Of a stretch of DNA of 64,000 nt, positions 2,398 through 57,042 are shown in pieces. The stretch lies in contig CP147780.1 of assembly GCA_037310415.1 (NCBI GenBank), forward strand, positions 2,368,001 to 2,432,000, read 5' to 3'. Every line of letters starts with the position of its first letter. Within the stretch, counting starts at the first letter, position 1. Origin of the DNA: Candidatus Atabeyarchaeum deiterrae (GTDB lineage Archaea > Asgardarchaeota > Atabeyarchaeia > Atabeyarchaeales > Atabeyarchaeaceae). The notes beneath the pieces were generated by a model. It was not told the DNA's origin and did not search any database. It worked only from the letters and a program-made list of their open reading frames with translations. Made by a program: the position numbers and the translations under genes.

Positions 2398-3363
2398 TTA
2401 TCCTCTGAATATCTTGTACATAGGGTGCTCTCTGGTCAATGGGTCGATCTTGTATTCTTGCCTCATGGCGTGTGCAACATACGCATCCGCTAGCCCGCAG
2501 TAGAAGTATGCTTCATGTGCACTTTCTATAGGTCCGTAGAGTGAGAAGCTTGCTCCCATAATTATCGGGAGAATGTTTGCCACTGTACTCGCCATTAAGT
2601 GCTGTTCTGGTTCAAGTTTGCGTCTTTTTCTCCACATGTTGACGGCGTTGTGCGTTCCAGCTCCTGCGGGCAGGCCATATTTCTCCTTTACTAAGTATGC
2701 AGCTTTGCTAACCGGGCCAGGATCAGGTATGTCGATATTCGCTGTATCCACGAGTATGTTCTCGATGCCTGCTCTGCGGGCGATCGGAAGTAATTCATCC
2801 AGGGCTTGAATCCTTCCTAGTACTGTGGGGTTTTTCGTGTTAAGCGCCAAGAGAATTGAGGATTTCACTCCCGCTTCTTTGAGCGCAGTAATCTCCTCCT
2901 GGGTGGCCCTTGGAGCTATCGAGTTATATACAGCTCGATTCGATAGGCCAACTTCTTTAACATAATTCAGCCCGGCGATCCTTACTTGATCATTGATTCC
3001 GTCCAGAGTGAATGGTCCTTCAATGGTGCTCGCTACGAAGTCTATAAGTCTTGGAAATGCCTGGGGAGCTGAGGCACACACGTCCACTATCCGGGGGTTA
3101 CCTGTCCTCCGCGACAGGTCTTCTTCATTTCTAAGCAGCGTCTCGGCCGCTTCTCTGTCGAATTCGCCAGTTTTATCATCTTTCAATAGTTTCTGCTTGA
3201 AATAGAAAATGCTTCCTATCATAACAGTAGGGTTCTGGCCCGGCTGACCGCCGACTTTCACGCCAGATATGTCAAAGATGCTCTGTTCTTTACTGAACTT
3301 GAACACAGCTGCAACCTCCATACTTTTCGTTAGAACCATCCTCTCTTCGGCAGATGGCATCAT
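2398..3363 (-). CDS. mtrH: Tetrahydromethanopterin S-methyltransferase subunit H family (MtrH/MtxH-like pterin-binding methyltransferase)
   Basis: N-terminal FKFSKEQSIFDISGVKVGGQPGQNPTVMIGSIFY, YNSI, LVDTA, GLPAGAGTHNA and LYGPIE motifs are typical of MtrH. Confidence 0.85.
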   Translation of the reverse strand: MMPSAEERMVLTKSMEVAAVFKFSKEQSIFDISGVKVGGQPGQNPTVMIGSIFYFKQKLLKDDKTGEFDREAAETLLRNEEDLSRRTGNPRIVDVCASAPQAFPRLIDFVASTIEGPFTLDGINDQVRIAGLNYVKEVGLSNRAVYNSIAPRATQEEITALKEAGVKSSILLALNTKNPTVLGRIQALDELLPIARRAGIENILVDTANIDIPDPGPVSKAAYLVKEKYGLPAGAGTHNAVNMWRKRRKLEPEQHLMASTVANILPIIMGASFSLYGPIESAHEAYFYCGLADAYVAHAMRQEYKIDPLTREHPMYKIFRG

Positions 3364-52652: not shown

Positions 52653-53912
52653 TCATCGTATGTATGGTGAGCCTTTTTCAATTGTGTTGTTCAACATCGC
52701 GCTGATCTGTTTGGGCACCGTCTTGTTGTTAATGAGTAAGCTTCGCGTCTTTCTGATCAGCTTCGGGGTGTCTATTTCCATGGGGCAGACTTCTTTGCAT
52801 CTTCCACATTGGGTACAGCTAAAGGCTTGCGTTGCCACCGAGTCGAGGCCCAAGGTAAAGAGCGTCCAAGGAACCCCTAATCCACCCATATAGGTGAATT
52901 CTCCATAATCATGGGCGACCAAGTTCCATACCGGGCAATCGTACAGACACGTACCACACCTTAGGCATGTGAAGGCTTCCTTGAAGTCAGCATCTTGAGC
53001 CATTTTTCTCCTTCCGTTGTCAAGCAGGATTACGTCTATCTCGGCTGGTCCAGCTGCAGGTTTCACTGAGAGCCTTTCTATATCCGAGCTGCTAGATATT
53101 CCCATTATCTGAGTTATGTACTGAGTAGTTGCATGACCCGTTGTGTAGAGTGGCATAACCTGACAGTAGAGATTAGCCGTGTCACGATCTGGCATGACCT
53201 TGTCTATGCCTGCTATAATGATGTGTTTCTCAGGCAACGATGTGACTAACCGATCATTGCCCTCGTTCGTTACCAAGTAGACGGTTCCAGTATCAGCTGT
53301 GATTGCATTCGCGCCTGAGACAGCAACTTTGGACTTGATAGATTTCTCCCGGATGAAATCTCTTACGAAGGCAACTAAGACGTTGGGATCTGGCGGCAGT
53401 TTTCTTCCTGCAAGCTTGCTGAAGTACTCCGCGAACACTTCTTTCGGAACTGAGATAGAGACTCCAGTCGGATGAGCCGCCTTTCTGTGTGCAACTTGCA
53501 GCAGCACTGCGCCCACATCGGTTTCCCAAATCTCTATTCCGTGTTCTTCGAGGAACTCGTTCAAACCTATTTCTTCGGTTGTTAGACTCTTAACTTTTGT
53601 TACAAGTTTCTCATTGCCGATAAGCTCGAGTGTCTTGCTGCAGGCTTCATGTGCGTCCTTTGCTTGGTAGACTTTCATTCCATTTTCTTGCATGATCTCG
53701 ACGGCTTTCTTGATATTCTCTTCGAGATGGTCGAGCGCTTCTCTTCTTCGGTTCTTCAGCTCCTTTGCCAAGTCTTGGATGTTTGTCACACGTTTAAGCC
53801 ATGTTTCTTTCCTAACTCTGTAGTTGGTTATCGCTTTCTCGACAGCGGTCCGAAGGAACGGGTCGTTCGCATCCTTAAGCAACTTCTGATAATATGAATC
53901 GAAATCAGCCAT
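52653..53912 (-). CDS. LutB/YkgF-like Fe-S protein (LUD domain + 4Fe-4S ferredoxin)
   Basis: KVKSLTTEEIGLN, ETDVG, SGANAITADTG...NEGN, LLDNGR, CLRCGTCLYDCP and CTQCGRCKEVCP motifs. Confidence 0.88.
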   Translation of the reverse strand: MADFDSYYQKLLKDANDPFLRTAVEKAITNYRVRKETWLKRVTNIQDLAKELKNRRREALDHLEENIKKAVEIMQENGMKVYQAKDAHEACSKTLELIGNEKLVTKVKSLTTEEIGLNEFLEEHGIEIWETDVGAVLLQVAHRKAAHPTGVSISVPKEVFAEYFSKLAGRKLPPDPNVLVAFVRDFIREKSIKSKVAVSGANAITADTGTVYLVTNEGNDRLVTSLPEKHIIIAGIDKVMPDRDTANLYCQVMPLYTTGHATTQYITQIMGISSSSDIERLSVKPAAGPAEIDVILLDNGRRKMAQDADFKEAFTCLRCGTCLYDCPVWNLVAHDYGEFTYMGGLGVPWTLFTLGLDSVATQAFSCTQCGRCKEVCPMEIDTPKLIRKTRSLLINNKTVPKQISAMLNNTIEKGSPYIR

Positions 53913-53953
53913 TGACCTTTCTTCCTCCTTATGCAGTCAAGTCCCTCGCTTCC

Positions 53954-54703
53954 TTACCACTCTTCTTCTCCTGTCAGTCTCCTGTAGATATAGGTACTAA
54001 GATCAAGAACCTGAATCTCCTTGCCAGTCTCTGCCTCTCTTCGAGATGCGCCCACTGTTAAGTTGAACACACATGATGGGCAGGCAGTTATGAGTTTGCT
54101 CACGCCTAGGGGTTCAATATCCTTCCGAATCCTGTTTTCAGCCATCTTCACAGAGAATTCTGGTTCGATCGCAAACATCGCGCCACCAGCTCCACAACAC
54201 CTTGATTCGACTCTAGTTGCCTGGGGCTCGACTAGTTCTGCCACTCTTGCTATTACTTTCCTGGGTGCTTCATATTCTCCAGCGAGTCTCCCCAATTCAC
54301 ATGGGTCATGATACGATACTTTCTCCTTCGTCGTGTCCTTGAAGTCCAGCTTCTCTATGTTCTCTGCCAAGATCTGGGACATGTGCTGCACTTTCGGTAT
54401 TCTTAGCCCGAGTTCAGGGTATTCTAGTGCAAGGACTCTATAACAACCAGCACATTCGGTTGCGATGAGATCAACCTTAGCCGAATTGAAGGCCTGAGTA
54501 TTCTTCCTAGCGATTTTCAGTGCATTCTCTTTGTCACCCGTCAGTAGTAGCGGGTCGCCGCAGCACCATTCGTTCTCAAGCCTCTTCACACTTAGACCTA
54601 TTCTTTTCAGTAGTTCTACGTGTTTGCCAATATCTTCGGAGAAACGGGCTCTAGCGGTGCAACCAGCGAAGTATAAGACAGTCTTAGGCATTTGCGAAGG
54701 CAC
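53954..54703 (-). CDS. CCG-domain Fe-S protein (LutA/GlcF/HdrB-like)
   Basis: YFAGC, WCCG, CAGC, YHDPCELGR, RCCGAGG and TACPSC motifs. Confidence 0.88.
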   Translation of the reverse strand: MPSQMPKTVLYFAGCTARARFSEDIGKHVELLKRIGLSVKRLENEWCCGDPLLLTGDKENALKIARKNTQAFNSAKVDLIATECAGCYRVLALEYPELGLRIPKVQHMSQILAENIEKLDFKDTTKEKVSYHDPCELGRLAGEYEAPRKVIARVAELVEPQATRVESRCCGAGGAMFAIEPEFSVKMAENRIRKDIEPLGVSKLITACPSCVFNLTVGASRREAETGKEIQVLDLSTYIYRRLTGEEEW

Positions 54704-54992
54704 CTTCCATCAACATGATGAATCAGAGTTTGCTCCTATCAGATGAGCGGTCTTTATGGGGTTTATTCTTCCCACTTTAATACTTAACTGAGCCTATCTC
54801 TCGTCTGCAATATGAATCGTTAGGTGTTTGGGCTATCTGTTACAGCGACCCAATTTCCTAAGTAAATCTTGCACTAGGACTTGCCGAGGCGCGTCGGACA
54901 CTGAGGGCCATTCTCCCTTCTCTGACGCCACGTCGGTTTACTGACGCACCTGTCGAAAAATCGGAGGTTGGGAGATTTGGTCAACTCTGGCT

Positions 54993-55046
54993 AAGTTTTC
55001 GGAACGAAAACTCATGTTGTTTTTCGTTTTCATTCCTTCCAAACCT
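54993..55046 (-). promoter_or_regulatory. Putative SECIS element (3' UTR of the UxxC peroxiredoxin-like gene)
   Basis: mRNA sense: helix I AGGUUU/AAACUU, internal loop GGAA/GA, 11-bp helix II GGAAUGAAAAC/GUUUUCGUUCC and A-rich loop GAAAAACAACAUGA. Begins at the first nt after the UAG stop. Confidence 0.65.
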
Positions 55047-55505
55047 CTATTCTTTTATTGTTCTGAGTACATCGAATATTTCCTCGTTCTTGGGAATATC
55101 TCTCATTGAATCTCCGTAATGCGCGTAACGGATGATTCCTTTCTTGTCTACTACCAGCAGAGCTGGCATCCTCCCGAACTTGTGGAGAATAACCTCTTGA
55201 TGCAGCATGTTTGCAACCTTCTTGCTTTCATCATAGTATATTGGGTACCTTCCTTTCGCGTACTTCTCCTCTAGCTTCTTGGCATTCTCTAGTTTGTCAG
55301 CGGTAATAGGGTATAGCAGCGCTTCAAGCTGCTCAAATCCACTGAACCCGCTTGCGAGACCGGCGATGTGTCCTCTGCAGTATGGTCAGTTTATGCCTCT
55401 TAGTAGGACAATGACAACGTTTTTCTTTCCCTCGAAGTCCCTAATGTTGACTGTTTCTCCTCTTGAGTTCGGGAGGCTAAACTCTGGGATCTTTGTTCTT
55501 ACCAT
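55047..55505 (-). CDS. Peroxiredoxin-like (AhpC/TSA/redoxin, thioredoxin fold) selenoprotein, Sec at codon 40 (TGA at 55388-55386)
   Basis: Manual translation: MVRTKIPEFSLPNSRGETVNIRDFEGKKNVVIVLLRGIN-U-PYCRGHIAGL...YPITADK...YPIYYD...MPALLVVDKKGIIRYAHYGDSMRDIPKNEEIFDVLRTIKE*. The frame is continuous on both sides of TGA. Confidence 0.85.
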
Positions 55506-55653
55506 CTGGAACTTGTCGTTCGTTTTGCAGGTGCCTCCTCTTGTTGCTAAGTGGTTAACATAGTATCCTCTTCAACTTATATTCGTAGCCATCGTAACGC
55601 CAGCGCACATTCTCAGAGGCACCCTTTAATCAAGGGCTGGCGCGATTCGAGTT

Positions 55654-56343
55654 CTAGATAGGATTACTCTTTGAGATTATGGACTCAACCTCGTACCAAT
55701 CCCTGGCTATAGGAACCCTGACTTTCGAAGTGATTTCCCTTGCAACTTGAGGAGACAATGCGATGCCAATGACCATAGGAATGAAATCGGCCATTACCTT
55801 AAGATCGCTCGGCTCATCATCGATTCCTACTGCAAGTTCGTGAACCTTGCCAAGTTCCTCAAGGGCGCCTCGTTTGTATTTCGCCGTAGACATCATCCTG
55901 TCAGGCTTCATGCAGAGCAGCACTTCGCGGTCATTTGGCATTGGAAAACCAAATTTCGACAAAGACGCGAGGGTCTCACTCCTCAAGGAATCTCTCTTTG
56001 AGTGATGCCTTCCTGTCAAATATGTGATGCCAATATTCATAGAACGCAGCCTGGAAAGGACCGCAACAGATCCCTTGACAGGGGTGTCGAGATCCATGTA
56101 TTTGCCAGACAAGAATACGTCGTAGAACTTACTTCGTTGAACCCTTGAAAGGTCACTGACTTCAGAGACCCTCGGAGCAGCATCCGTACTGCAATTCAAG
56201 GCTTCGGCGATGGATCGGTTGAATCTGACTCGACTGTCAATTACGGTGTTGTCCAAGTCGCTAACAAGAAACCATCTTTCGGAGGCCTTTGTGGATACTT
56301 TGCTTTCGCCTTGGTGCATAAACAAGTAACCAGCCTCCTGCAA
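55654..56343 (-). CDS. HAD-like phosphatase
   Basis: VSDLDNTVID, YLTGR, KP and GIDDEPSD motifs. Confidence 0.8.
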   Translation of the reverse strand: MQEAGYLFMHQGESKVSTKASERWFLVSDLDNTVIDSRVRFNRSIAEALNCSTDAAPRVSEVSDLSRVQRSKFYDVFLSGKYMDLDTPVKGSVAVLSRLRSMNIGITYLTGRHHSKRDSLRSETLASLSKFGFPMPNDREVLLCMKPDRMMSTAKYKRGALEELGKVHELAVGIDDEPSDLKVMADFIPMVIGIALSPQVAREITSKVRVPIARDWYEVESIISKSNPI

Positions 56344-56502: not shown

Positions 56503-57042
56503 ATGAATACCAAAAAGAATGGCGCTGATGCAGAGTACATGTTCAAGATTATCCTTGTTGGAGATGGCGCCGTCGGCAAATCCTCATTGATCCGCAAATA
56601 CATGGAAGGAAAATTCGAATCAGACTACTTGCCAACAATCGGTTCGCAGATCTACACAAAAACATTATCGAATAGAACCCATAGAAAGGTCAAACTCGTG
56701 GTGTGGGACATTTCTGGGCAACCAGTATTTGGTATAGTGCGACCAGACTACTACAAGGGGGCCACAGGAGTCCTCCTCGTGTTTGACCTGACGAGACCAG
56801 AAACTTACAGTCATCTCGATGGCTGGGTTGAAGAAATACGCAAAAACACTTCGAAACCTGAGATCATTGTCATTGGAAACAAATCAGATCTTGAGGTCGA
56901 CCGCAAAGTTTCACGGAAATCTGGCGAGGCGTATGCTTCCAAGGTCAATGGCTCCTATCTCGAGACGTCAGCGAAAGGTGGAAACAACGTAGAAAAGACC
57001 TTCAGTGATCTTGCAGACAGACTTGTGGAAAACATTCATTAG
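56503..57042 (+). CDS. Rab-like small GTPase
   Basis: FKIILVGDGAVGKS, PTIG, WDISGQ, YYKGA, GNKSDL and ETSAK motifs; no C-terminal Cys prenylation motif. Confidence 0.93.
   Translation: MNTKKNGADAEYMFKIILVGDGAVGKSSLIRKYMEGKFESDYLPTIGSQIYTKTLSNRTHRKVKLVVWDISGQPVFGIVRPDYYKGATGVLLVFDLTRPETYSHLDGWVEEIRKNTSKPEIIVIGNKSDLEVDRKVSRKSGEAYASKVNGSYLETSAKGGNNVEKTFSDLADRLVENIH

Follow-up and report, generated by a model that had tools for sequence, protein, structure and literature searches.

Earlier work on Asgard selenoproteins has described the kind of gene considered here. PrxL was introduced as a selenoprotein of Lokiarchaeota by Mariotti et al. in 2016, and that article defines Prx-like proteins by a C/U-x-x-C box in place of T/S-x-x-C and treats the family as biochemically uncharacterised (PMC4989117). 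It also gives the lokiSECIS as a 3' UTR structure in which AUGA is followed by a 9-bp stem with an 11-nt A-rich loop and then by GA. In 2024, Huang et al. recorded PrxL in 43% of Sec-using Asgard genomes, with same-family sequences, a Jordarchaeia member among them, in suppl. 79 (PMC11227280). For the complete genomes of Atabeyarchaeia and Freyarchaeia, Valentin-Alvarado et al. 2024 list in each case Sec machinery, a tRNA-Sec, eukaryote-like SECIS and a UXXC selenoprotein named "peroxiredoxin family protein (Prx-like)" (PMC11291895).

The locus described here lies in a window of 64,000 nucleotides (the whole stretch of DNA that was analysed) from a 2.76 Mb genome in a single contig (G000; Table 1). 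Like the published Asgard PrxL proteins (PMC4989117, PMC11227280), its product would carry a U-x-x-C box with Sec first, no other Cys and about 150 aa. The published Jordarchaeia member (...LPNSRGETV...LLRGITXPYCRGH...) resembles it, and LPNSRGE...INXPYCR is common to the window protein and the published Jordarchaeia and Sifarchaeia sequences (PMC11227280). The host differs, since Atabeyarchaeia are absent from the 2024 PrxL dataset. The initial annotation referred to Lokiarchaeota, but the organism is an Asgard archaeon of the Atabeyarchaeia type: the genome locus closest to the window gene is in "Promethearchaeati archaeon SRVP18_Atabeyarchaeia-1", at 84% aa identity, and Freyarchaeia and Jordarchaeia come next, the Jordarchaeia loci being 66-73% identical to the window protein. 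The gene had also been called hidden, which is true of the open reading frame (ORF) track but not of the literature (PMC4989117, PMC11227280, PMC11291895). The identification as PrxL is correct but already known; what departs from the published descriptions is the unusual shape of the RNA element downstream, a three-way junction without the AUGA/GA core, unlike the PrxL SECIS stated in PMC4989117 and PMC11227280.

Taken together, the evidence favours, with a probability of about 0.88, a single Atabeyarchaeia-type PrxL gene whose UGA would be read as Sec, most likely under the direction of the three-helix RNA, to give a selenenylsulfide-type reductase.

Table 1. Features of the PrxL locus (window positions) and Sec-related genes elsewhere in the genome
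Feature	Position	Strand	Details
PrxL coding sequence	55047..55505	(-)	ATG 55505-55503 to TAG 55049-55047; 152 codons including one putative Sec codon; translation, Pfam, AlphaFold2
In-frame TGA, read as Sec (U40)	55386..55388	(-)	first position of U-P-Y-C redox box; N-terminus of model helix 41-52
Cys43, codon TGC	55377..55379	(-)	second residue of UxxC box; sole Cys of the protein
Shine-Dalgarno-like GAGGAGG	55534..55540	(-)	similarity to relatives at the nucleotide level begins at this box
ACG at the family's conserved start position	55521..55523	(-)	10 nt after the Shine-Dalgarno-like box, 18 nt upstream of ATG
Three-helix 3'-UTR element, candidate PrxL SECIS	54972..55046	(-)	75 nt; conservation, covariation
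P1 of 3' element	55045-55039 with 54980-54974	(-)	outer helix GAUUUGG/CCAAAUC
P2 of 3' element	55036-55026 with 55011-55001	(-)	A-rich loop GAAAAACAACAUGA at 55025-55012
P3 of 3' element	54997-54994 with 54986-54983	(-)	loop UAGCCAG at 54993-54987
Alternative eukaryote-like SECIS drawing, window only	54999..55033	(-)	AUGA 55033-55030, 8-bp stem, 10-nt loop ending AG, CC, GA 55000-54999
SepSecS	G000 209739-210863	(-)	PF05889, 397 bits
EFSec/SelB	G000 211584-212486	(-)	TIGR00475, 286 bits, over cut-off 242
PSTK-like	G000 203453-204235	(-)	TIGR03574, 167 bits, E 4.8e-49, under curated equivalog cut-off 290.5 bits
SelD	G000 899256-900152	(+)	TIGR00476, 237 bits; own TGA in HG-U-SCK
vhuD-like gene with two TGA	827015-827383		
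tRNA-Sec candidate	G000 208757-208935	(+)	within L019; about 800 nt from SepSecS, inside Sec gene cluster

A PrxL gene interrupted by TGA

The minus-strand frame contains a single TGA, in the context VLLRGIN-U-PYC-RGH when TGA is translated as U, and its translation has no Cys outside the redox box. The read-through product matches AhpC-TSA (PF00578, 7.4e-20, residues 2-127, on a 124-position model) and Redoxin (PF08534, 8.9e-15), so that one domain extends across the TGA. The code 11 ORF list holds only a 53-aa fragment at this place and an ORF track would therefore miss the gene. Translation and Pfam thus bear out the initial annotation's description of a 152-codon AhpC/TSA frame interrupted only by TGA 55388-55386 and absent from the ORF track, and its expectation that automatic annotation would split such a gene holds for the relative L023, which is called as 39-aa and 93-aa proteins, and for database entries of 89-93 aa.

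Protein conservation continues past the TGA, with 86% identity to L023 over the full length. Among 80 homologous loci, taken from species-representative genomes with protein alignment A3 as the search query and drawn from Atabey-, Frey-, Jord-, Loki/Prometh-, Hermod-, Thor-, Borr-, Hod-, Odin- and Helarchaeota as well as Anaerolineae, TGA occupies the corresponding column in 79, and the one exception has TGT (Cys). Recurrence at this exact column is not chance, and TGA also stands there in three more metagenome loci checked by hand. The apparent Sec/Cys pairing is typical of selenoproteins. The TGA stands at the first position of the CxxC-type box (GIN-U-PYC), where the initial annotation had placed it.

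Relatives in the protein databases are of two kinds: full-length sequences whose residue at the column is W, D or C, and sequences of 89-93 aa that hold only the part after the TGA. The DNA of two W-bearing homologues matches only if TGA is translated as W, so the W in both cases checked is TGA under code 4 and not a true Trp; the question of Trp versus Cys/TGA pairing raised in the initial annotation is answered in favour of the latter. Truncation has a similar origin in the one case checked (L023), where a 39-aa ORF ends at the same TGA just upstream of the shortened relative. Cys or Asp occupies the column in a group of four related homologues, of which two carry the label Helarchaeota; one Helarchaeota sequence reads CPFC and others have D.

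Could the TGA simply mark a pseudogene, an assembly error or the boundary between two small genes? Public gene calls are split in just this way, into a 39-aa protein and a C-terminal fragment (39-aa plus 93-aa in L023, and the truncated 89-93-aa entries). However, 79 of the 80 loci keep TGA at this column, and they belong to many Asgard lineages and to Anaerolineae; both the single domain and a single confident predicted fold extend across it. Contigs of four sequencing runs cover 55386-55388 with no difference, two of them (X7, X8) from strain variants that differ elsewhere and keep the TGA, which also disposes of the sequencing error considered at the outset. A broken or divided gene is barely credible on these grounds, and one continuous gene is the preferred reading.

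The start of the gene may lie slightly upstream of the ATG. At the family's conserved start position other Asgard loci have ATG (30), TTG (24), ACG (6) or ATT (5), the six ACG loci being L026-L031 of the Freyarchaeia/Jordarchaeia type, and the NDKF codons that follow the ACG vary synonymously among relatives. The position within the family, the Shine-Dalgarno-like box 10 nt before it and this synonymous variation suggest that ACG 55523-55521 may serve as a near-cognate start, which would add TNDKFQ (MNDKFQ if read as Met) to the protein.

Downstream of the gene on the same strand are genes for a CCG-domain protein and a LUD-domain/4Fe-4S protein (LutA/LutB-like); upstream is a HAD hydrolase gene, and a Ras-family small GTPase is encoded on the other strand (neighbour region 52653-54703 (-) and 56503-57042 (+)). 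Homologues in Anaerolineae/Chloroflexota (L093-L101, L103) are 40-45% identical, have TGA at the same column and lack the Asgard 3' element. Two contigs whose metagenome bins are labelled Deferrimicrobium and Nanopelagicaceae (L060, DATKTP010000126.1; L075, DATKTW010000112.1) carry an Asgard-type PrxL with the Asgard 3' element and are probably mis-binned Asgard contigs.

Sec machinery and the decoding of UGA

If the UGA at 55388-55386 is recoded, it would be decoded as Sec by the archaeal/eukaryote-type pathway of tRNA-Sec, PSTK, SepSecS, SelD and EFSec. The check on this machinery found matches for SepSecS, EFSec and SelD, a PSTK-like gene that scores under its cut-off and lies about 5 kb from SepSecS, and a candidate tRNA-Sec. 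That tRNA was located by short BLAST and alignment with the tRNA-Sec of relatives, not by a covariance-model score. Its acceptor stem pairs perfectly over 9 bp (GGCGCCCGA/UCGGGCGCC), its anticodon stem has 6 bp and carries the loop CUUCAAA, and a T stem GGAG/CUCC, a long variable arm, G73 and CCA are also present. The D arm is enlarged by an insertion of 37 nt and the T loop by one of 25 nt, and 17 nt match a relative's anticodon arm exactly. The assignment as a candidate tRNA-Sec is convincing by eye. A T-loop intron is also known from Lokiarchaeota tRNA-Sec (PMC4989117).

Automated searches behaved differently. The Rfam model detects intron-less tRNA-Sec genes in six relatives and returned nothing usable in this genome or in its Sec gene clusters; ARAGORN at default and relaxed settings gave no credible tRNA-Sec in the genome, and a pattern scan for the D arm and anticodon arm yielded only noise. 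The D-arm insertion, the long variable arm and the T-loop insertion account for the failure of Rfam and ARAGORN to find the candidate.

With introns allowed, ARAGORN does report a tRNA(UCA) at G000 246125-246215, the twin of a gene labelled "Trp(CCA)", and many database homologues have W at the column. Both observations could be taken to mean that a suppressor or near-cognate tRNA reads UGA as a standard amino acid, Trp or Cys. The twins (G000:C1:243848-243938 and 246125-246215; L002:849-939 and 3126-3216) are intron-bearing and differ only at the wobble base. Placing the intron at the canonical 37/38 position turns them into Arg(CCG) and Arg(UCG), two arginine anticodons otherwise absent from the ARAGORN list, and a separate tRNA-Trp is encoded at 487340; for these reasons a UGA-to-Trp suppressor was rejected, and with it the "SeC" label that ARAGORN had given to the tRNA(UCA) at 246125. 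The twins also carry A20 and G73, which we take, from general knowledge of identity rules, to go with the arginine reading. Further against reassignment, the column W's that were checked are TGA under code 4, the sole sense codon at the column among the 80 loci is Cys in a classic Sec/Cys pairing, and TGA is the commonest ordinary stop in the genome, ending 506 of 1265 long ORFs (40%). Decoding as a standard amino acid is most improbable, and the labels Trp(CCA) and SeC(UCA) on such twins show how automated annotation of intron-rich Asgard genomes can be misled into calling a suppressor or Sec tRNA.

Sec is almost certainly inserted at UGA 55388-55386, to judge from comparative sequence data. 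This recoding had been proposed in the initial annotation and is supported by the conservation of the column, the Sec genes and the unchanged contigs; none of the refutation tests named there went against it.

Fold and proposed chemistry

The AlphaFold2 model (mean pLDDT 87.3) has a thioredoxin fold of the BCP/PrxQ type, and Foldseek gives the model a TM of about 0.8-0.9 against the best Prx-type chains, for example Bcp1 (3drn) and AhpE. BCP/PrxQ-type peroxiredoxins such as Sulfolobus Bcp1 (3drn) and Aeropyrum BCP (2cx3) share the fold, with TM 0.83-0.88 to 3drn and AhpE and profile E-values of about 1e-10. In a profile alignment to 2cx3, U40 is matched with the Ser of S-P-V-C and Cys43 with the peroxidatic Cys, and an invariant Arg, R112, is present. 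The P-x-x-x-T/S-x-x-C motif of typical PrxQ/BCP is not found in PrxL: unlike in those proteins, the Thr/Ser of T/S-x-x-C would give way to Sec, which turns the motif into a UxxC box of the thioredoxin-like kind.

With Sec at the Thr/Ser place, PrxL is probably a reductase that forms a selenenylsulfide rather than a textbook peroxiredoxin. In the proposed scheme it would act as a thiol:disulfide oxidoreductase with its U-P-Y-C centre where the first helix of the BCP/PrxQ-like fold begins, Sec40 attacking and Cys43 resolving to close a selenenylsulfide; such a redox cycle is the probable one judging from the predicted protein. A subgroup of the family has UxxA, UxxS or UxxT (L064, L073, L075-L088, L092 and L021). 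The Cys aligned with the peroxidatic Cys is lost there, so Sec would be the sole redox residue. Two loci (L090, L091) have UxxU, and all loci of both kinds keep the 3' element where downstream sequence is covered.

The three-helix RNA element after the stop codon

The expectation that Asgard selenoprotein genes carry SECIS elements in the 3' UTR proved right for this genome in its canonical form at vhuD and selD, which have textbook eukaryote-like SECIS (AUGA-9 bp-loop-GA, and a type II form with a mini-stem). It did not extend to a conserved AUGA/GA core after PrxL, where the three-helix element is found instead. Neither strict nor loose scans for AUGA/UGA-stem-loop-GA/AA detected a conserved canonical eukaryote-like SECIS within 300 nt of the PrxL loci, the loose scan matching in only 19 of 72 loci and at scattered places. 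No SECIS family of Rfam matched in 54500-55700, where three chance-level matches fell on the other strand.

RNAalifold recovered only the outer helix from the 3' alignment, so the structure was set by hand and then tested. Over 59 sequences, 94.3% of cells are paired in the hand-set structure, compared with 35-55% when the partners are slid; compensatory changes occur in 16 of the 22 pairs, and none of 500 shuffles attains the observed values. P2 measures 9-11 bp across the family, UGAG is a frequent ending of its A-rich loop, and the P3 loop UAGCCA is near-invariant. A covariance model of the element finds a single match in its own genome (54972-55047) and 11 in 41 genomes, all 11 directly after PrxL genes, including both members of two tandem pairs. 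In these pairs (G010:C26:6319-7598 and G040:C4:673173-673915; L130/L138 and L133/L139) each gene has its own 3' element.

The element follows the window gene and all 70 UGA-bearing Asgard loci with enough downstream DNA. It is absent after the four Cys/Asp homologues, in two of which the next gene overlaps the stop; as these four form one related group (two labelled Helarchaeota), the contrast in presence and absence reflects few independent events. Of the four closest loci, L023, L025 and L026 resemble this locus at the nucleotide level from the Shine-Dalgarno box (55540 or 55521) as far as 54956-54975 and no further; for L024, the BLAST similarity already ends within the coding sequence, at 55064. 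Relatives show no conservation of the 268 nt that separate the element from the next gene.

Is this RNA the signal that recodes the UGA? It resembles the lokiSECIS in its place in the 3' UTR right after the stop and in its 9-11-bp hairpin, whose loop of 11-15 nt starts A-rich and often ends in AG. Unlike the lokiSECIS, it lacks a conserved AUGA ahead of the hairpin and a conserved GA behind it, it adds the outer helix P1 and a second hairpin with the loop UAGCCA, and it occurs only after PrxL genes. Because it does not fit the AUGA-9 bp-loop-GA model, the case for a SECIS role is one of association. Provided that Sec is inserted, the three-helix element is probably the PrxL SECIS, and the RNA at 55046-54972 would then most likely direct the recoding.

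A different arrangement is that Sec is inserted but the three-helix RNA is some other PrxL-linked cis element, acting in stability, termination or regulation, with recoding left to an AUGA...GA hairpin or an unrecognised signal. An AUGA...GA structure similar to the genome's own vhuD SECIS can indeed be drawn in the window, and PMC4989117 and PMC11227280 state AUGA_GA type I structures for prxL genes. Yet none of the closest relatives (L023, L024, L025, L026) has the AUGA of 55033-55030, whose G occupies a paired and compensated position of P2, and the drawing needs a 1x2 mismatch beside the core. The scattered matches of the loose scan likewise speak against such a hairpin or another signal of that kind, and nothing else downstream is conserved that could be an unrecognised one. 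The missing AUGA and its compensated G are the reasons for preferring the three-helix structure over the AUGA...GA drawing, and a role for the element outside recoding is unlikely, though it keeps some weight.

What kind of SECIS the three-helix element might be is a more tentative matter. It is possible, though doubtful, that it represents a distinct and undescribed type. One speculative form of this idea is a PrxL-specific SECIS, used by these genes throughout the Asgard archaea, in which the upper hairpin of the lokiSECIS is kept and a three-way junction of conserved sequence takes the place of the AUGA/GA kink-turn core; a second mode of SECIS recognition in the lineage closest to eukaryotes would follow from it. 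Published AUGA_GA descriptions for prxL may have overlooked the three-way junction.

For the family as a whole, standard gene callers split or mistranslate PrxL, and public entries appear as fragments of 89-93 aa or with a code 4 "W". If the three-helix element is a SECIS, a single Asgard genome would hold two structurally different Sec-insertion signals. Such an element would bear on the origin of the eukaryotic kink-turn SECIS and its binding partners.
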